Positions 1,989-20,000 of a stretch of 20,000 nt of DNA are shown here, piece by piece. Origin of the DNA: an uncultured virus (IMG/VR IMGVR_UViG_3300027754_000072) (Duplodnaviria > Heunggongvirae > Uroviricota > Caudoviricetes); the IMG/VR virus record IMGVR_UViG_3300027754_000072. One strand, 5' to 3'. A program made the translations under genes and the position numbers. The notes below the pieces were generated by a model. That model saw only the letters and a list, made by a program, of their open reading frames with translations, did no database searches and was not told the origin of the DNA. How positions within the stretch are numbered: position 1 is the stretch's first letter; the number at the start of each line of letters is the position of its first letter.

Positions 1989-3011
1989 TTAATTATTGTT
2001 TCGTTGACTATAAAAGCTTTGAACATCTGCTGGGTTCATTTTACCAATAATATCAGCAATAACATGAGATTTTTCAGCTATATCAGACATAGTATCTATA
2101 AGGATTCTTGGTATTTTTTCATCCTTTAATTTACTAAATAACACATCCATTTCTTGTTGTGTTCTTTGCAATTGCTGCATCAACATACCATCTGAATTTT
2201 CATTTACTTTTTTTGAGTAATTTACATTACCTTTTTCAGTAAAATGCTTTTTTGTTTTTTTACCAAAATTCTTTTTTGATTTTTTGATTTTTTTTGATTC
2301 GTTTACCATACCATCAAAATTTTTCTTAGTTACACAAGAATTATCAAGCATATTAGCAACACTTTTTTGCCAATCTTTCATGGTAGGAATATGCTTTGGA
2401 ATAGTATTTTCAGCTGCCATATAAGAACCACATCCAGACGAATACTTTTTCATGTGTTTCATTGAGCCAGATTCGTTGTCAGAAGAATCCTTGTTCATGC
2501 GTTTCATGTGTTTCATGTATTTCATTGAACCAGATTCTTTTGGCATATTTTCAGCTGACATATAAGAACCACATCCAGAAGAATCTTTTTTCATGTATTT
2601 CATTGAACGAGATTCTTTGTCTTTTGGCATATTTTCTACTTCTATGCCCATGTCACCTTCTTCATCATGGTCTTCATCGTCATGGTCTTCATCGTCATGG
2701 TCTTCATCGTCATGGTCTTCATCGTCATCATCGTAATCTTCATCATCTTCATCATCATCATCATCGTCTTCATCGTCATCATCGTAATCTTCATCGTCTT
2801 CATCGTCTTCTTCATCTTCATCATCTTCATCATCTTCGATATCTTCATCATCTTCATCATCTTCATCATCATCTTCGATATCTTCTTCATCTTCCATGTA
2901 AGATTCCATTTTCTTATCCATCATAACTCCCATGTTCTGAGGATTGGAAAGTCCAAGGTTGAAAGATAGCATGTTTTCGTTTAACTTTTTCCATTTATTG
3001 TAATTAAGCAT
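1989..3011 (-). CDS. Low-complexity acidic protein, putative internal head protein
   Basis: AGGAG SD; N-terminus MLNYNKWKKLNE; about 80-residue Asp/Glu tract, Met/Lys repeats, a Lys-rich segment and a helical C-terminus. Confidence 0.75.
   Translation of the reverse strand: MLNYNKWKKLNENMLSFNLGLSNPQNMGVMMDKKMESYMEDEEDIEDDDEDDEDDEDIEDDEDDEDEEDDEDDEDYDDDDEDDDDDDEDDEDYDDDDEDHDDEDHDDEDHDDEDHDEEGDMGIEVENMPKDKESRSMKYMKKDSSGCGSYMSAENMPKESGSMKYMKHMKRMNKDSSDNESGSMKHMKKYSSGCGSYMAAENTIPKHIPTMKDWQKSVANMLDNSCVTKKNFDGMVNESKKIKKSKKNFGKKTKKHFTEKGNVNYSKKVNENSDGMLMQQLQRTQQEMDVLFSKLKDEKIPRILIDTMSDIAEKSHVIADIIGKMNPADVQSFYSQRNNN
2651..2893 (-). repeat. Coding low-complexity (GAT/GAA/GAC)n tract, including tandem 15-nt TCTTCATCGTCATGG units (HDDED)
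   Basis: Directly visible trinucleotide-periodic repeat encoding poly-D/E. Confidence 0.9.
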
Positions 3012-6097: not shown

Positions 6098-6681
6098 TTT
6101 TTTGGCCCTCTTTTTAAATTAATACCTTTTAGTTTTTCTTTATGCATGTCTTTTTTATTTTTTAAATCATCCATTATGCTTTTTAAACTTTTAGTCATAC
6201 TAGAAGCATTTATTTCTCCGCTAATTTTTTCATTGCTAGTTACAGAAACAGTTTTTTTACTTTTATTATAGAAACCTTTGCTTAGTACAAACATATCAAT
6301 TTTATGATTGTAACTTATTAGTCCACACCAGCCTCCATCATCCCAGTTTCTTGCACTTACAATTATTCTATATGGTTCTTCATCAAATATTAATTTAACA
6401 TGATATCCTTCTCTTTTTAAAGCAGCACTTACATATCCAAGTGAAATTTTTGCAAATCCACTTAATGCATCTTCTTTATTTGTACGATAATTTATTTCTA
6501 CAGAATATCTTGTGTGCTCAATTGATTCTGTTATAATATTATTGTTTTCTTTTAAAATATTTGAAAAATATTCTTTGCAAATAGAAGTAAAGCCTTCTAA
6601 ATCTTCTTGATTTATATCTTTAACATTATCAAAAAGATCAGAAAAAACTTCTTGTTTATATTGTTTGTAATTTTTCATCAT
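6094..6681 (-). CDS. Hypothetical protein, putative internal head protein
   Basis: 195 aa; N-terminus MMKNYKQYKQE followed by ILKE and IITE motifs; alpha/beta core with RNWDDGGW. Confidence 0.75.
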   Translation of the reverse strand: MMKNYKQYKQEVFSDLFDNVKDINQEDLEGFTSICKEYFSNILKENNNIITESIEHTRYSVEINYRTNKEDALSGFAKISLGYVSAALKREGYHVKLIFDEEPYRIIVSARNWDDGGWCGLISYNHKIDMFVLSKGFYNKSKKTVSVTSNEKISGEINASSMTKSLKSIMDDLKNKKDMHKEKLKGINLKRGPKN

Positions 6682-6730
6682 AATTTATTTATTGTTAGAA
6701 CTAAAATATAATAGATAAAAAGGAGAAAAT

Positions 6731-7570
6731 TTGAGTAAAAAATTAACAATAGGATTTGCTTGCTACGATGATGTAGAAGGAGCATTTTTTACAATTGGAG
6801 CTTTAAAGCTTTATCACAATAAACATGAAAAAGATATTGAAATATTAGTAATTGATGATTTACCTAATAAAACAGAAGGCCTTCAAGGATTATGTGATAT
6901 ATCAGGAGCAAGATATGTTCATGCTTCTGTAAATAAAGGACCAGCAAGAGCTAAGAATAATGTTTTTCATTATGCAGAAGGTGAATATGTATTATTGCTA
7001 GATAGTCATGTTTTATTATGCGAAAATGCAGTTGATAATATTTTTGATGGTATTTTTTATGATTTAATAAAAAAAGATATGTGGGTAGGCCCTTTGATAA
7101 ATGAAAGAGGTAATATTATAGCTACTCATTTAGATCCAAAATGGCGTGGAGCATTTTATGGAACATGGGGAGTAGATGATGAAATTGCTAAAGGAACAAT
7201 GAAAGAAGTCGTAATGCATGGGGCTGCATTTATGCTAATGAAAAAAGAACATTGGCCAAAATTCTCTTCTAATTTTGAGGGTTTTGCTGGAGAAGAAGGT
7301 TATATTCATGAGAAAGTTAGAATGAATGGCGGTAAAGTAATTTGTAATCCAAGATTAAAATGGATGCATAGATTCGTAAGAGGAAAACCTATTACTTTTA
7401 AACTTGATAATACAGATAGAGTTTATAATTTTTTAATTGCATTTCATGAAATAAAATATGATGTAAATGAAGTAATTTCTTTCTTTAGAAAAGATGAAAT
7501 GGCTGAAGATATTATTCAAAAAGCAATTGAAAGAGCAGTAAAAGTTTATCCAAATATGTTTAATAAATAA
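6731..7570 (+). CDS. GT-A fold glycosyltransferase (GT2/GT27-like, DxH motif)
   Basis: LTIGFACYDD, EILVIDD, NKGPARAKN, GEYVLLLDSH, FAGEE, HRF; TTG start with AGGAG SD. Confidence 0.9.
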   Translation: MSKKLTIGFACYDDVEGAFFTIGALKLYHNKHEKDIEILVIDDLPNKTEGLQGLCDISGARYVHASVNKGPARAKNNVFHYAEGEYVLLLDSHVLLCENAVDNIFDGIFYDLIKKDMWVGPLINERGNIIATHLDPKWRGAFYGTWGVDDEIAKGTMKEVVMHGAAFMLMKKEHWPKFSSNFEGFAGEEGYIHEKVRMNGGKVICNPRLKWMHRFVRGKPITFKLDNTDRVYNFLIAFHEIKYDVNEVISFFRKDEMAEDIIQKAIERAVKVYPNMFNK

Positions 7571-7605
7571 TACATACAATTAAATTATATTAATGGGAGA
7601 ATATT

Positions 7606-8052
7606 ATGGCTGATTTAACTTTGGGTCAAAATAACATTTCTGTGGTAGTTAGTGATACCACTGGAAACATGGCTATAGTTAATACAGGTGGTGATTCTGG
7701 TAATTCTTTGACAACATTTGAAAGTTCCCGAGGTCAAAAATTAGCATCTGACTCTATACCAGTTGTTATATGTAATGAACAAGCAATACAAAGTTATTTT
7801 ATAACAGACCAAATAACAGTTGGATTATCAGTTGTACAACTTTCTTCAAATATAATTGAAAATTCAATTAATATAAAAGCAAGTAATTCAAACAATGGAA
7901 ATATTTACATTGGCAATTCAAATTCATTGACAATATCAAATGGATATGAATTAGTTGCAGGCGAAAGCATTACCTTACCTATAATTAATTCAAATTTAAT
8001 ATATTTAATAGCAAATTTAGATAGTCAAAAAGTTTCTTTTATAGGTTCTTAA
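7606..8052 (+). CDS. Probable virion structural protein (beta-rich; decoration or tail-associated)
   Basis: S/N/T/G-rich; GQKxxSxSIPVV and IKAxxxNxGNIYIG...GYELxAGExI motifs that I recall from phage structural proteins; GGGAG SD. Confidence 0.55.
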   Translation: MADLTLGQNNISVVVSDTTGNMAIVNTGGDSGNSLTTFESSRGQKLASDSIPVVICNEQAIQSYFITDQITVGLSVVQLSSNIIENSINIKASNSNNGNIYIGNSNSLTISNGYELVAGESITLPIINSNLIYLIANLDSQKVSFIGS

Positions 8053-8929
8053 ATTTAAGAACAGCATTAAACTTTCTTATATTAAATAATTTTTTCATTA
8101 AAGCATCAACTTCTTTAATGTCATCTAATATTTTCTTAGTAAGATTATCTATATCTTTTTGCAATTTAGAATTTTCTTTTTTAATTTTATTAATTTTTGT
8201 TTGCAGTTTACCAATGCAAGATTGGTTTCCATTGCATTGTGATAATGCATTATTTAAATTGTTTAAATTAGTAGCGTTAGCTTCAAATTTGGCACCTACA
8301 TTAAACTTATCAATTTTTGTATTTATTATAGATTCTAAAAGCTTAGTTAATTTATTAAGACTTCCTCCTAAATTATTTTGATCGTTACGGTCTAGATTTT
8401 TTATAAAATCATCTATATTTGTTTGTAAACATTTATTGTCATTGCAATCTCTTAATTTTGAAATAACTGCATTAACTTTACTTATGGTTTTAGATTTATT
8501 AACATTTCTAATTTTATTCATACCACCACCCATACCACCCATACCACCCATACCACTCATACCACCACCCATACCACCACCCATGCCACCCATACCACTC
8601 ATACCACCACCCATACCACCGCCCATACCCATGCCCATACCACCGCCCATACCACCGCCCATACCACCGCCCATACCACCGCCCATGCCCATGCCTCCCA
8701 TACCATTCATGCCACCGCCCATACCACCGCCCATGCCCATGCCTCCCATACCATTCATGCCACCGCCCATACCACCACCGCCACCGCCACTACCGCCACT
8801 ACCGCCACTACCGCCTCTGCCAGCTTTACCATTAGAGGCAACGCCCCCATGTTTAATCGTGTAATGAATCATGCCAACATTATTTGTGTTTTTTAAATTT
8901 TTTAATTTTTCAATCTTTTTATTATTCAT
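8039..8929 (-). CDS. Gly/Met-rich low-complexity protein with C-terminal coiled coil
   Basis: About 100-aa (GGM)n tract, two Cys-pair motifs and a heptad-rich C-terminus; AAGGA SD and an upstream TATAAT. Confidence 0.75.
   Translation of the reverse strand: MNNKKIEKLKNLKNTNNVGMIHYTIKHGGVASNGKAGRGGSGGSGGSGGGGGGMGGGMNGMGGMGMGGGMGGGMNGMGGMGMGGGMGGGMGGGMGGGMGMGMGGGMGGGMSGMGGMGGGMGGGMSGMGGMGGMGGGMNKIRNVNKSKTISKVNAVISKLRDCNDNKCLQTNIDDFIKNLDRNDQNNLGGSLNKLTKLLESIINTKIDKFNVGAKFEANATNLNNLNNALSQCNGNQSCIGKLQTKINKIKKENSKLQKDIDNLTKKILDDIKEVDALMKKLFNIRKFNAVLKFKNL
8519..8820 (-). repeat. Coding tandem repeat (GGY GGY GGT ATG)n encoding GGGM/GGM
   Basis: Visible 9-12 nt periodicity, e.g. CATACCACCGCC; a GC-rich island in an AT-rich genome. 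Confidence 0.9.
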
Positions 8930-9903: not shown

Positions 9904-12900
9904 ATGTTGAAGAAATTTTATGAGTGGAATTTTTTTATAAATGAATACAAAGATTCTAGTTATCTAGAAGAAAAAGATAATTATTATAAGAATTTGTTAA
10001 ATGAAGCTACCCAAGGAAATGTTACTAAAGAAACAATTCCTCATTTATTTTCAGATGATACTATAAAATTCTTGTATCAATTTAACCCTGATTATTGGGA
10101 TCAAGCTGAATATGAAAGATATCAAATTCTTTATGAGGCTATGGTAAAAAGACAGGCTTATTATAATGATTTTTTGCTAGAGTACATCGAAGAAGAAAAA
10201 CAAAAATTAATAAAGATTTTTGATGAACAAAAAGAAATGACTAAAATCTACTTTAGTAATTCTATTACTGAAACTATTATTAATCATTGTGCTCAAAAAG
10301 CTGCTTTTGAAAAAATAAATACAGAAAAGATAAATGATTGGTGGAATGATACTTCAGAAAATGGTGGTAGTCAATATTTAAAATCTGATTTTTCAGTTAA
10401 GGTTGGCCCTAAAAGTACTAAAACAGGAGAAGTTTTTCATGAATATAAAATTAATTTGTTTTTAAAAGAAATGATTAAAAGAATTGAAAAAGATCCTAAT
10501 AGTTCTTCTGGTGCCGACTTAAGTTTTCCACAGGAATGGCATGTGATTAACTCAAGAAGTGGTAAAAACGAAACTATAAAAAGATTTGCTGGCATGTTAT
10601 TACCAACGCTTATAGCAATACAGAACAATATTGTAATTTGGAAAAATTCCGTTGCTAATAATATGTTATCCACAGAAAACCCAGAACACGGTGTAACACA
10701 CCATGTTACTCATTTAAAAGCAAAAAAAAGCGAAAGTCCTTTGAAGGCTGAAATAAAATACACTTCAGAAGGCAAAGAAAATATAGAATTGTATGAAATC
10801 GAAGAGGCTATTCTTACGAAAGAATTAAGAAGACTACTTGATCGTAATAACTGGGTTTTTGAAGAAAAAGAAAATACAAAACTAATTTCAAAATTAGAAA
10901 AAGAATTAACATCATTACCAGAAGGTTCAGAGAAAACAGGAATAAAAGAAAGAATTAAAAGTTTATTAGAAAAAAAGAAAGGTGTTTATAATGCTTTTAT
11001 AATTGATTTTAAAAATACATTTCCATTTGCACAAAAAGTTTTTGAAAATATAGATAGTAGTTTTAAAATTTCTGATGGTGGTAAAATAGTATTAAATAAT
11101 CCTCAAATATTTTTTGATAAAATAGTTAATTTAGATGCAGAAGATAGAAAGGCTTTATCTTATATTGGGTCACATATAGAAGGAATTAAATCAGAAAGTG
11201 ATAAAAAGAAAAAGAAAGATGAAGACCCAAGAATAAAATATAATAAAGTAATAGATGTTGCTAAAAAAGATTTTATTGATATTTTTAAAGATCAAACTTT
11301 AGCTAATAGTTTTAATAATTTAATGGTAACAAAACAACTTTTAGATTGGGTTAGAGATAAGAATATAAAATCTTTTAATCCTATTACTAAAGAAGAAGAA
11401 TATGCTGAGATAGATGAAGATGGAAATGTAAAATTTCCAAAAGTTTACATGCCAACATTTAGCAAACATGTTACATTTACTAACAATAAAAATGGTGAAG
11501 AAGTAACAAAAGAAGTCTCGATGCCATTATTAATAGCAGGTAAAATTTTAAAAGAAAAATCAAGAGAAGAATTATTGCAAGATGATAAAGAAGAAGATAC
11601 TGGTGCTGGTATGTGGAATCCTTACCATGGAAAATATCAAAAAAGATATTTTGATAGATCGAGAGATATCTATGCTGGTATTCAAGGGCAAGAAGATAAG
11701 ATTAAAGGAGGTTTAAGACCAAATCAGAATATTGAATCCTTTGAATTTATGTGTCCTTCTGAAAATGACAAAGAAAAATTAGATAATTTTTGGAGTAGAT
11801 TGAAAAAAATTATTACAGAAAACGGAAATTTATCAACAGTTAAAGTTAAAACAAGTTCTGATTTGAAAACTCTTTTAGATAAAGATGTACCAAAAGAAGA
11901 TAAAAAACATTTATACCCAGAATTAATTTTTAACTCAGGATCTTCTGGTTCTTTAAAAGAAAAGAATACCGTAATTACTGGCATAGCAGAAATAATATGG
12001 AATTATTTAAAAGTTAATATTATTGAAGATCAAAAAGCTTTGACTCCTGAAAGAATTGTTGCAGCGTCAAATTTTATCAATATTTATAATTTAATAATGT
12101 CAAAAATACTTTCTAACATTGGCGATGTTGAAATGATGGATAAGAAATATTTGAAAAAGTTTATCATAGATAAAATGCAGCTTTTTACACAACAAAATTT
12201 AATACCTGAAAGGAAAGGAAGGGCTACTAGAAATGAAGATCCAAAAGAAGGCGATAAATTAAAATCATTTGAAGACCCTGATAAAATTTTACAAAAAGGT
12301 TATGCAACTTACAATATAGAAAAATATGTAAATGCATTGCAACAATATGCCTTGCATTTGTGTAGAAAACCAGCTGGAGAAGATGTTATATCTTGTGGAA
12401 AATGCGTAGATCCAATTGATGGAAAATGCGAAATATTTATGGATGGAGAAGAGTATAAAAATGATTTGCATAAAATTTCAAGCCTTTTAAAAGAACATGA
12501 TAAGGTAGTTAGAAAAGTTTATAAAAAACCTACTTCTACTTCTACTTCTGCTTCTCCTGTTATTTCACGCACTGCTATTGCTGCTCCTTCGCCAACTCTA
12601 GCACCTCCTTCATCAACACTTGCACCTCCTTCATCAACACTTGCACCTCCTTCATCAACACTTGCACCAACGCTAGCACCAACGCTAACTCCTTCTATTT
12701 TACCTGCTGCAAAACCTGTTGCTGATTTAACTCCTGCTTTGCCTCAAGAAAAAGAATATATAATGCATATTGAAAAAGAAGTTATGGAGATATTAGTTAA
12801 AAGAATGTTATCTTCTATGGAAAACGAAAGACTTAAGTTAGCTCAAAAAAGATATCAAAAAATGAAAGACGCTTACGAGGATGATTATATGAGCGATGAA

Positions 12901-13101
12901 AAAAAAGATGAATTAATTGAAGCACATGAAAATGAATATAACGATTTAATAAAAGGTTTAGAATTTGATAAAGAATCTCTAAAATTAAAACTTTCTAAAT
13001 TTAAAAATGAAATTCAGGATTTTCAAACATTTGTAAATTCTATAATTAAAACTTATAATATGAAAGACATTGAAGAAGGAATTTCAAAAGACAAGGTATA
13101 A
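9904..13101 (+). CDS. Large hypothetical protein (1065 aa), putative virion-internal protein
   Basis: GAGGT SD; N-terminus MLKKFYEWNFFINE; 4-Cys cluster, Pro/Thr/Ser linker and C-terminal coiled coil; no catalytic motif recognised. Confidence 0.85.
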   Translation: MLKKFYEWNFFINEYKDSSYLEEKDNYYKNLLNEATQGNVTKETIPHLFSDDTIKFLYQFNPDYWDQAEYERYQILYEAMVKRQAYYNDFLLEYIEEEKQKLIKIFDEQKEMTKIYFSNSITETIINHCAQKAAFEKINTEKINDWWNDTSENGGSQYLKSDFSVKVGPKSTKTGEVFHEYKINLFLKEMIKRIEKDPNSSSGADLSFPQEWHVINSRSGKNETIKRFAGMLLPTLIAIQNNIVIWKNSVANNMLSTENPEHGVTHHVTHLKAKKSESPLKAEIKYTSEGKENIELYEIEEAILTKELRRLLDRNNWVFEEKENTKLISKLEKELTSLPEGSEKTGIKERIKSLLEKKKGVYNAFIIDFKNTFPFAQKVFENIDSSFKISDGGKIVLNNPQIFFDKIVNLDAEDRKALSYIGSHIEGIKSESDKKKKKDEDPRIKYNKVIDVAKKDFIDIFKDQTLANSFNNLMVTKQLLDWVRDKNIKSFNPITKEEEYAEIDEDGNVKFPKVYMPTFSKHVTFTNNKNGEEVTKEVSMPLLIAGKILKEKSREELLQDDKEEDTGAGMWNPYHGKYQKRYFDRSRDIYAGIQGQEDKIKGGLRPNQNIESFEFMCPSENDKEKLDNFWSRLKKIITENGNLSTVKVKTSSDLKTLLDKDVPKEDKKHLYPELIFNSGSSGSLKEKNTVITGIAEIIWNYLKVNIIEDQKALTPERIVAASNFINIYNLIMSKILSNIGDVEMMDKKYLKKFIIDKMQLFTQQNLIPERKGRATRNEDPKEGDKLKSFEDPDKILQKGYATYNIEKYVNALQQYALHLCRKPAGEDVISCGKCVDPIDGKCEIFMDGEEYKNDLHKISSLLKEHDKVVRKVYKKPTSTSTSASPVISRTAIAAPSPTLAPPSSTLAPPSSTLAPPSSTLAPTLAPTLTPSILPAAKPVADLTPALPQEKEYIMHIEKEVMEILVKRMLSSMENERLKLAQKRYQKMKDAYEDDYMSDEKKDELIEAHENEYNDLIKGLEFDKESLKLKLSKFKNEIQDFQTFVNSIIKTYNMKDIEEGISKDKV
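12598..12684 (+). repeat. Three 21-nt repeats (LAPPSST) followed by two 12-nt repeats (LAPT)
   Basis: CTWGCACCTCCTTCATCAACA x3 then CTWGCACCAACG x2. Confidence 0.9.
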
Positions 13102-19125: not shown

Positions 19126-19755
19126 TTATTTTAATATTTTATATAATTTTACATCTTCAGAATAATAAGACTTGACTCTTTCAATGATATCTTCTGATAG
19201 TTTTGGCTTTTCAAACTTTCCTTCATTGACTTTTTCCATTGGCCAATTTAATTCTGCATCTTTGCATAATTTTTCTAAGTCATCAGGAAACAAATAAAGT
19301 TTAGTAATTGGTTTTATCAAATAAGATTGCGTAAGAAAATGAGTGTTTTTTCTTAAATTTATACTTGTTTTTTCCAATACAACATTTTCATCGTTCTCAA
19401 GTGCTTTAATTGCTTTTTCAGGAGCTATTTCAAGATAAGCTACTGTAGAAGCAAATCTAACTATTGGATCACGAACAGGCAATAAAACAACTGTATCTGG
19501 ATCTTTTGAATAAGGACAAATGTTTTGCCAAAAAGCTATTGAATCTAATTTTTCATTTTTTAACATTTTTTGAAAAGATTCTGGCAAACTATCTTTAAAA
19601 TTTTGTGAAAACCTTGACCAAATTCTTTCGTGATCATCTAAAGCTTTTTTTAATTCTTCAGGATAATACTGTTTTACAATAGCACACGCCAAAGTGGATG
19701 AACCAACTTTGGCGTTAAATGCAATATGACATTTAGGTAATTTAAAATATCTCAT
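19126..19755 (-). CDS. Sulfotransferase family protein (Sulfotransfer_2 / carbohydrate sulfotransferase-like)
   Basis: 5'-PSB-like NAKVGSSTL, 3'-PB VRDPIVRFAS, HFLTQ, and C-terminal YYSEDVKLY. Confidence 0.8.
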   Translation of the reverse strand: MRYFKLPKCHIAFNAKVGSSTLACAIVKQYYPEELKKALDDHERIWSRFSQNFKDSLPESFQKMLKNEKLDSIAFWQNICPYSKDPDTVVLLPVRDPIVRFASTVAYLEIAPEKAIKALENDENVVLEKTSINLRKNTHFLTQSYLIKPITKLYLFPDDLEKLCKDAELNWPMEKVNEGKFEKPKLSEDIIERVKSYYSEDVKLYKILK

Positions 19756-19791: not shown

Positions 19792-20000
19792 TTATACTGC
19801 TGGAGCAGGAGTTGTTGCTTCTGGAACAGGGGTTGTTGCTTCTGGAACAGGAGTTGTTGCTTCTGGAACAGGAGTTGTTGCTTCTGGAACAGGAGTTGTT
19901 GCTTCTGGAACAGGAGTTGTTGCTTCTGGAACAGGAGTTGTTGCTTCTGGAACAGGAGTTGTTGCTTCTGGAACAGGAGTTGTTGCTTCTGGAACAGGAG
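19792..20000 (-). CDS. C-terminal part of a protein ending in (PVPEATT)n-PAPAV*; start lies outside the window
   Basis: Open minus-strand frame ending in TAA at 19792-19794. The single repeat variant (position 19831) is a synonymous ACT/ACC change in this frame. Confidence 0.7.
   Translation of the reverse strand, partial: PVPEATTPVPEATTPVPEATTPVPEATTPVPEATTPVPEATTPVPEATTPVPEATTPVPEATTPAPAV
19807..20000. repeat. At least nine tandem 21-nt repeats AGGAGTTGTTGCTTCTGGAAC
   Basis: Directly visible; contiguous with no spacers; truncated by the window end. Confidence 0.95.

Follow-up and report, generated by a model that had tools for sequence, protein, structure and literature searches.

A DxH-type glycosyltransferase of an uncultured tailed phage, with a predicted fold nearest to the polypeptide GalNAc-transferases, as a candidate for phage protein O-glycosylation

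The glycosyltransferase gene and its conserved motifs

The gene considered here encodes a predicted glycosyltransferase (GT) and lies in a stretch of 20,000 nucleotides (the window) from an uncultured tailed virus of the Caudoviricetes (IMG/VR record IMGVR_UViG_3300027754_000072). It occupies 6731..7570 of the (+) strand as a single uninterrupted frame of 279 codons and a stop, opened by a TTG start at 6731 with a Shine-Dalgarno-like AAGGAG, read directly from the sequence, 5 nt ahead of it (6720..6725, +). The third-position G+C content (GC3) of this open reading frame (ORF) is 0.12, similar to that of the neighbouring genes in a window of 27% G+C, and a scan of 6400-8300 for promoters and terminators returned sites no more numerous than those in shuffled sequences. 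Pfam recognises the product as Glycos_transf_2 (PF00535; 36.8 bits against a cut-off of 23.3, E 4.9e-9) over residues 32-96 only, and the same model is matched by 85/85 of the aligned family members. A word search gave 178 homologues, the family comprises 1475 cluster representatives at E<=1e-3 (636 of them at E<=1e-30), and its motifs are present in about 800 viral stretches. The Pfam match, the homologues and the cluster representatives together establish the ORF as real and conserved rather than a product of chance. Judged from its translation, Pfam match, homologues and AlphaFold2 model, the protein is a soluble GT-A enzyme of the DxH type, free of any hydrophobic segment (maximum Kyte-Doolittle value over 19 residues, 1.14) and belonging to a large family without a characterised member. 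Among 50,697 records of cultured phages, tblastn found no relative of the GT and there was no DNA match to the window as a whole, and no PHROGs family was matched by the GT, its 148-aa neighbour, a 1065-aa protein or a 460-aa protein.

An earlier note, made from the sequence alone, had read four motifs in this product in a fixed order, and translation of 6731-7570 (+) returns all of them in that order: LLDSH (residues 89-93), HGAAFMLMKKEHW (residues 163-175, 7217-7255), FAGEE, and KVRMNGGKVICNPRLKWMHRFVR (residues 195-217, 7313-7381). The first contains D91-S92-H93 (7001..7009, +), a DxH variant of the DxD metal and nucleotide-sugar motif, at exactly the position given in that note. The third, F185-A-G-E188-E189 (7283..7297, +), is an xED-type motif and a candidate for the catalytic base or a sugar contact, while the C-terminal His motif W211-M-H213-R214-F215 (7361..7375, +) may supply a third metal ligand, a role suggested by the GT-A literature. 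Across the 85 aligned members, no variation is seen at D14, G17, D42, D91, H93, G120, G144, W146, G164, F185, E188, W211, H213, R214, F215 and N233. D91-x-H93, E188-E189 and W211-x-H213-R214-F215 are kept in 80/80 viral and 72/72 cellular copies; the intervening position 92 is Cys in 45 and Ser in 32 of the 80 viral copies. Since both histidines to which the earlier note had drawn attention, those of DxH and HRF, are retained in every copy, they constitute the signature of the family. The features of a GT-A core are all found, namely a DxD-type motif after a strand, an xED motif, a G-loop and a C-terminal His (C-His). According to the available part of a survey of GT-A enzymes (PMC7185993), DxD gives way to DxH only in families GT27 and GT60, both of which carry out O-glycosylation of polypeptide Ser/Thr and group with GT7 and the GT2 domain of chondroitin polymerase, and the C-His binds metal in GT27.

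Predicted structure and fold comparisons

An AlphaFold2 model built on the 85-sequence alignment has a mean pLDDT of 95.8 and a pTM of 0.93. Its DSH comes right after the strand 86-90, H213 closes the strand 211-213, and the two glutamates stand ahead of the helix 191-198, an arrangement that fits the GT-A core. In a Foldseek search against the PDB, the matches listed are polypeptide GalNAc-transferases (ppGalNAc-Ts) exclusively through rank 39, the best being 6nqt_B (E 9.9e-15, TMq 0.74), and the teichoic-acid enzyme TarP appears at rank 40 (TMq 0.58). Across three structure comparisons, polysaccharide and teichoic-acid enzymes fall below every GT27 entry. The BFVD collection of viral models holds one true relative (TM 0.95); its other viral GTs reach a TM of at most 0.67, lower than that of GalNAc-T2, and the phage proteins labelled there as 'Glycosyltransferase, GlcNAc' range from 0.59 to 0.64. 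The structural alignment starts at model residue 1, which corresponds to residue 134 of the GalNAc-T2 chain, and D91 and H93 would fall on residues 224 and 226, which we take to be the Mn ligands of GalNAc-T2. 

At the level of sequence the likeness to GT27 is marginal. The best match of the family profile in the PDB is TarP (E 5.4e-10), over the N-terminal 121 positions only, and GalNAc-T2 is reached at E 0.006 (18-19 bits) with an alignment over positions 37-225 and an identity to GT27 of 11-18%. The same search with the C-terminal half alone returned no glycosyltransferase, so the likeness to GT27 rests on structure and not on sequence. Glyco_transf_7C is weakly matched by 19/85 members; PF11397, the Pfam model of GT60, has no match among the 85 members at E<=1, a threshold at which HMMER filters may drop very weak matches, and no GT60 structure surfaced in the PDB searches. 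The structural expectation of the earlier note is therefore borne out, in that the closest solved folds are those of GT27 and not of polysaccharide, lipid or DNA enzymes, and of its wider comparison with GT27 and GT60 the nearest fold and the DxH stand, whereas membership of GT27 at the level of sequence and a match to PF11397 do not. Going by the model, the enzyme would work like a GT27 transferase yet is not a member of that family.

Candidate acceptors and other genes of the window

Downstream of the GT and on the same strand lies a conserved gene for a 148-aa protein (7606..8052, +) with 32 homologues. Its N-terminal part is disordered and the model of its C-terminal half shows a jelly roll, for which reason a structural role fits it and, on homologues and model together, it is a probable structural protein. 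The earlier note had described this neighbour as a Ser/Thr-rich probable structural gene; it is real and conserved, with the jelly roll and 22% Ser+Thr, but contains no mucin-like tract. 

Stretches of mucin-like composition are found elsewhere in the window. A 1065-aa protein, recognised as an ORF (9904..13101, +) and with no match to any family, to the PDB or to the ESM atlas, contains a Pro/Ser/Thr-rich linker of 85 residues (12523..12777, +; 25 Ser/Thr and 17 Pro) with three copies of LAPPSST, and is a candidate acceptor. The second candidate is a C-terminal tail at the 3' end of a gene that leaves the window (19792..20000, -), whose product ends in nine copies of PVPEATT followed by PAPAV; its frame is fixed by a GC3 of 0.01, against 0.58-0.71 in the other frames. 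The two peptides that the earlier note had named are present in the window outside the adjacent gene, at 19810-19998 (-) for PVPEATT and 12598-12660 (+) for LAPPSST. The two elements of phage virion O-glycosylation, a GT and Ser/Thr-rich stretches of the phage itself (the LAPPSST linker and the PVPEATT x9 tail), accordingly occur in one window.

Directly downstream of the PVPEATT-tail gene is an ORF for a 209-aa Sulfotransfer_2-like protein (19126..19755, -). An hhalign comparison of its family (55 members) with the Sulfotransfer_2 proteins found near cellular relatives of the GT gave a probability of 92% (E 6e-7) for an alignment of 110 columns that takes in an RDP..RF.S stretch; weaker support comes from blastp (E 0.015) and from weak matches to sulfotransferases in the PDB, and the ORF has no Pfam match. 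A Pfam scan of the window ORFs found no further GT in the 20 kb. Upstream of the GT, the opposite strand carries a 195-aa ORF, a NUDIX hydrolase and, further away, a prim-pol. Two repeat-bearing ORFs were also observed, namely a gene for a 296-aa protein (8039-8929, -) with a long Gly/Met repeat (GGMGGGM...) at 8518-8815 followed by a Cys-containing coiled region, and the ORF 1989-3011 (-), in which a long imperfect repeat of 9/15/30 nt (2653-2894) yields an Asp/Glu-rich acidic stretch. 

The gene in its own phage lineage

The window is identical to an uncultured viral contig of 49 kb (L001/L160), and its 20 kb recur, with no difference in the genes that were compared, in a contig of 197.5 kb (L162); by calculation the window overruns the end of the 49-kb contig by about 46 nt and may stem from another record or from a terminally redundant or circular genome. 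The 148-aa gene is also found in five more loci (L161-L165), two of which, L161 and L162, do not differ in those shared genes that were compared. Locus L163 is syntenic with the window and keeps the GT at 81% identity, whereas L164 and L165 are syntenic without it, just 66 nt separating the 195-aa gene from the 148-aa gene, and the site of insertion or deletion corresponds to 6682-6730 of the window, 9935-10001 of L164 and 3644-3710 of L165. Because it is missing from the same spot in these two loci, the GT appears to be an accessory insertion in the lineage.

Comparison of the candidate acceptors between carriers and non-carriers gives a mixed answer. The linker of the 1065-aa protein is Pro/Ser/Thr-rich in the window and absent from L164, and a Pro-rich linker tracks the GT over four loci (two with, two without), although its Ser/Thr content does not do so in L163. 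In L163 a protein with four TTPEPT repeats (10453-11103, -) is encoded about 500 nt from the GT, in place of the Gly/Met-repeat protein of the window.

Tract proteins beside the gene in other viral loci

The surroundings of the GT were compared over 80 viral loci, in which ORFs were called across 6 kb on each side of the gene (12 kb). A strict tract was defined as at least 15 Ser/Thr/Pro, of which at least 9 are Ser/Thr, within 20 residues, and an ORF with such a tract was present in 42/80 loci. These ORFs are concentrated on one side of the gene, making up 55/290 of the ORFs at gene positions -4 to -1 (upstream) and 3/273 at +1 to +4, with 1/194 farther upstream and 0/308 farther downstream, and the DNA covered is about equal on both sides. 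After grouping of the GTs at 70% identity, with all ORFs of at least 60 aa counted, nested ones included, a tract ORF was found in 17/30 groups and a co-oriented upstream one in 15/30. A maximum-likelihood tree of 139 rows, left after merging identical sequences (67 viral, 72 cellular), places the GT of the window in a clade with SH-aLRT 100 that contains 24 viral rows and one contig of a metagenome-assembled genome (MAG), and 19/24 of these viral rows have a tract ORF at most 6 kb away. 

The tract proteins of the viral loci form 24 clusters. Many of them consist of small Cys-rich modules linked by poly-Ser/Thr. In a few there is a Laminin_G_3, Ig-like or Stig1 domain or a similarity to a virion structural PHROG, and most are without a family. 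Viral GTs also frequently adjoin a second GT2, methyltransferases of the sugar type, multi-domain proteins that combine GT, methyltransferase and TPR parts, and a small DUF6171-like Cys-rich protein. 

Several individual loci merit description. Phage proteins resembling beads on a string, with C..C.Y.W.G..W....C..GC.C modules and long poly-Ser/Thr runs, are encoded just upstream of the GT in L009-L020, L027, L028 and L037 (for example L012:4266-5624). The start of the GT gene is overlapped by that of a small Cys-rich protein (about 125 aa) in 16 viral loci (L009-L021, L027 and L037, as at L012:5621-6007, and L042:4789-5178); a cluster related to it matches DUF6171, which is fused to a GT in the long relative P0190. 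The MAG contig within the viral clade (L081, labelled Acidimicrobiaceae) encodes a GT 53% identical to that of the window (8001-8840) with four Thr-tract ORFs directly downstream of it, and is probably a phage or prophage binned into the MAG.

Cellular relatives

In species genomes, 323/328 pattern matches encode relatives of the GT, and 79 loci were kept. They belong mostly to Alphaproteobacteria, Desulfobulbaceae, Arenicellales, Planctomycetes and Acidobacteria, and their GTs are 35-40% identical to that of the phage. Usually the cellular GT belongs to a longer polypeptide of about 600 aa, in which a match to HprK-related kinase A (TIGR04352) covers the N-terminal half; this fusion is seen in 52/84 proteins and 46/72 loci. 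Families assigned by Pfam on cluster representatives identify NTP_transf_5 in 35 loci, a stand-alone PqqD in 26 and a second GT2 in 14 as the main neighbours, with smaller clusters for Sulfotransfer_2 (5 loci) and a B12-radical-SAM enzyme (6 loci). Among 50 long representatives chosen from 150 listed, PqqD was found in 5, TPR in 6, GT25 in 10, a methyltransferase in 2, and GT10 and GT4 in 1 each; other family members are fused to MauE, thioredoxin-like or F5/8-type-C domains.

The cellular loci also encode apparent substrates. Strict-tract ORFs account for 20/533 of the cellular ORFs within four genes of the GT and 2/488 of those beyond. In 18 of the loci, 27 paralogous proteins combine a Tat-like RR signal with the conserved stretch W.KPV..SV.LPAHAQT, and many of them then carry Thr/Pro-rich tracts, such as TTEAPATT repeats, PMPTTM repeats and AEPTTTAQPTTT; these Thr-rich proteins are 170-320 aa long and exported. 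Loci with such paralogues include L083, L093, L095, L097, L103, L110, L112, L113, L116, L120, L146 and L157-L159. Together with the fusion of HprK-like kinase and GT, PqqD and NTP_transf_5, the paralogues look like an undescribed bacterial system for protein modification. The accessible text of a review (PMC8498205) describes HPr-kinase homologues that phosphorylate peptide Ser, a nucleotidyltransferase by which the phosphate receives a hexose, and sulfotransferases that share clusters with those kinases. Because the cellular branch lives among such peptide-modifying parts, a peptide acceptor is likely for the catalytic domain that the two branches share.

Proposed function and alternatives

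The GT is predicted to be a cytoplasmic, metal-dependent nucleotide-sugar:polypeptide O-glycosyltransferase that acts on Pro/Thr/Ser-rich stretches of the phage's own proteins, a prediction in which we place belief and doubt in about equal measure. The enzyme would be made during infection and remain soluble in the cytoplasm, where D91 and H93 of the DxH, with H213, would hold a divalent metal and the diphosphate of the UDP-sugar, and E188/E189 would lie at the sugar/acceptor site. The donor sugar may be a UDP-N-acetylhexosamine (UDP-HexNAc) or UDP-hexose of the host, which is a guess. A first sugar would be placed on Ser/Thr hydroxyls of extended Pro/Thr/Ser-rich stretches, for which the window offers two candidate substrates, the linker with LAPPSST in the 1065-aa protein and the PVPEATT x9 tail at a C-terminus; virion-associated proteins would thereby acquire a sugar coat resembling mucin. 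That the acceptor is protein Ser/Thr had been proposed in the earlier note, and the GT27-like fold, the invariant His, the tract genes of other phages and the kinase and PqqD fusions speak for it. Within the window, the two Pro/Thr repeat proteins and the sulfotransferase-like gene beside one of them also count in its favour, as does the TTPEPT x4 protein of L163; what did not hold is the choice of substrate, the adjoining gene not being mucin-like. 

Several observations weigh against this prediction. The sequence similarity to GT27 is marginal (E 0.006, with no GT matched by the C-terminal half alone), and a likeness of fold leaves the acceptor unfixed. The evidence is weaker in this window than at other loci, as the GT stands among replication-type genes (prim-pol, NUDIX) with no tract gene adjoining it: the 148-aa neighbour (33/148 Ser+Thr) has at most 8 Ser/Thr/Pro in any 20 residues, and the LAPPSST and PVPEATT repeats are 2.3 and 12 kb away. 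Within the lineage, the linker of the 1065-aa homologue in the GT-bearing L163 is Ala/Pro-rich with few Ser/Thr, and L164, despite having no GT, encodes a poly-Thr protein at a distance of 7 kb (the analysis covered 20 kb of a contig of 116 kb). Among the viral loci, 38/80 are without a tract ORF within the 12 kb, and one viral lineage has its GT between DnaB, primase, dNMP kinase and a PD-(D/E)XK nuclease. The tract counts are, moreover, phylogenetically non-independent, and a position of the GT at the end of a fibre module could yield part of the pattern.

An acceptor in the host envelope other than protein, such as teichoic acid, lipopolysaccharide (LPS)/O-antigen, capsule or a lipid-linked intermediate, or the elongation of an existing glycan, as with TarP, is unlikely, and is the alternative that survives best. 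Pfam places the GT in GT2, TarP is its best sequence-level match in the PDB, and its NCBIfam matches are polysaccharide GTs only, all of them weak and far below their cut-offs. Relatives are, in addition, often fused to or adjoined by enzymes for the assembly of longer glycans (GT25, GT4, GT10 and sugar O-methyltransferases), and genes for conversion of the host surface also adjoin fibre genes in some phages. The structure comparisons point the other way, with polysaccharide and teichoic-acid enzymes ranked below all GT27 entries, the GT has no membrane segment, and neither a partner of the GtrA/flippase kind nor a domain of the polyprenol type was found in the window. Its relatives are fused to kinase, PqqD and TPR domains, which bind peptides and not polysaccharides, and mere elongation would need an initiating enzyme outside the window, in which this is the sole GT found.

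A very low probability is given to glycosylation of hydroxymethylated bases in the phage DNA as a means of evading restriction. Here the prim-pol and NUDIX genes of the window and the viral lineage with its GT between DnaB, primase, dNMP kinase and nuclease would be in their proper place, and GT-A-fold DNA glycosyltransferases of phages are described in the accessible part of a preprint (bioRxiv 10.1101/2023.12.21.572611). That source gives their motifs as R...DDD...EDY/F, their nearest structures as TarP and the trypanosome JGT, and their gene company as a C5-methyltransferase with 5mYOX or hydroxymethylases of the ThyS type. The present GT has DSH and not DDD, and TarP is only at rank 40 in Foldseek. 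No TET/JBP, C5-methyltransferase or ThyA-like gene was recognised among the 26 window ORFs or among the scanned representatives of 61 out of the 79 neighbour clusters that recur in 4 or more loci, many of the ORFs being without a family, which leaves the absence unproven; nothing beyond ThyX (6 loci) and dNMP kinase (13 loci) was encountered among the neighbours. L164 and L165, moreover, dispense with the GT in otherwise conserved synteny. 

Finally, a protein or peptide O-glycosyltransferase aimed at host proteins (exported Thr-rich proteins, pili or flagellin) would be served equally well by the evidence from fold and fusions, and the apparent substrates of bacterial family members are the cell's own Tat-signal Thr-rich proteins, but it too has only a slight chance of being right, as the tract genes of phages are phage-encoded, directly upstream and on the same strand, and this phage encodes two Pro/Thr repeat proteins of its own.

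If phage protein O-glycosylation is the correct reading, environmental phages would commonly have fibres and tails coated with sugar, to judge by the roughly 800 viral stretches that hold the family motifs, with a bearing on how hosts are recognised, on the stability of particles, on immune recognition and on adhesion to mucus or polysaccharide. A broader proposal is offered tentatively and may well be wrong: that tailed phages and some bacteria possess a mucin-type O-glycosylation of their own, carried out by a cytoplasmic DxH GT-A lineage that would be, in structure, the closest prokaryotic or viral kin of the eukaryotic GT27 and GT60 enzymes and would begin O-glycans on Thr/Pro repeats. In this phage the glycans are perhaps sulfated by the neighbouring sulfotransferase-like enzyme, so that virion proteins would bear a sulfated mucin-like coat, and the lineage could represent a prokaryotic or viral root of mucin-type glycosylation in eukaryotes. 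The fold nearest to GT27 and the shared DxH bear on the origin of eukaryotic mucin-type glycosylation. The enzyme is also small, soluble and confidently modelled, and is a possible tool for the preparation of mucin-like glycopeptides.

Comparison with known systems

The nearest solved fold is that of GT27, typified by human GalNAc-T2 (2ffu, 4d0t, 6nqt), with which the phage GT shares the DxH. It is, however, only 11-18% identical and half as long, its 279 aa being all catalytic domain with no lectin domain found by Pfam, and it is without the ricin-type lectin domain and the signal anchor of GT27; it is cytoplasmic where GT27 enzymes are Golgi-lumenal, and its E189 presumably stands where GT27 has the Asn of WGGEN. 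The polypeptide and hydroxyproline GlcNAc-transferases of GT60, as presented in the available part of the GT-A survey (PMC7185993), are likewise DxH enzymes, soluble and cytoplasmic, that act on polypeptide hydroxyls in prokaryotes and protists, and the phage family differs from them in having no match to PF11397. 

Three further kinds of system invite comparison. TarP (GT2; 6h1j), the prophage-encoded GlcNAc-transferase of wall teichoic acid, and the DNA glycosyltransferases of phages are phage-borne GT-A enzymes like the present one, and the former is its best sequence-level match in the PDB. SunS (GT2; 7msp), the S/O-glycosyltransferase of a glycocin, is a bacterial GT-A enzyme that glycosylates a ribosomal peptide. 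The HPr-rel-A peptide-tailoring sets of lasso-peptide clusters, comprising an HprK-like kinase, PqqD, NTP_transf_5 and a sulfotransferase, contain the same parts that are fused to or adjoin the cellular relatives; the phage GT stands alone, a Pfam scan of the window having turned up none of the kinase, PqqD and NTP_transf_5 components, and the cellular loci examined hold no lasso cyclase or protease, their apparent substrates being exported proteins of 170-320 aa rather than short peptides. The literature searched, which left most subscription journals outside its coverage, yielded no GT27-like phage enzyme and no Thr-rich phage fibres as substrates of O-glycosylation, and literature including that on peptides made by ribosomes and modified after translation (RiPPs) yielded no DxH GT-A lineage tied to mucin-like tract proteins and to kinase and PqqD fusions.

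A functional parallel is provided by the O-glycosylation of mycobacteriophage virions (Freeman et al. 2023, Cell Host Microbe). In the accessible portions of the reports concerned (PMC12619734, PMC11256854), glycosylation of phage-particle proteins is experimentally shown only in mycobacteriophages, phage GTs are believed to decorate the phage's own structural proteins, and the glycans are located at the C-termini of capsid and tail-tube subunits. As far as these sources extend, phage-encoded glycosylation of phage structural proteins is already known from mycobacteriophages, and the C-terminal PVPEATT tail of the present phage offers a candidate site of the corresponding kind.

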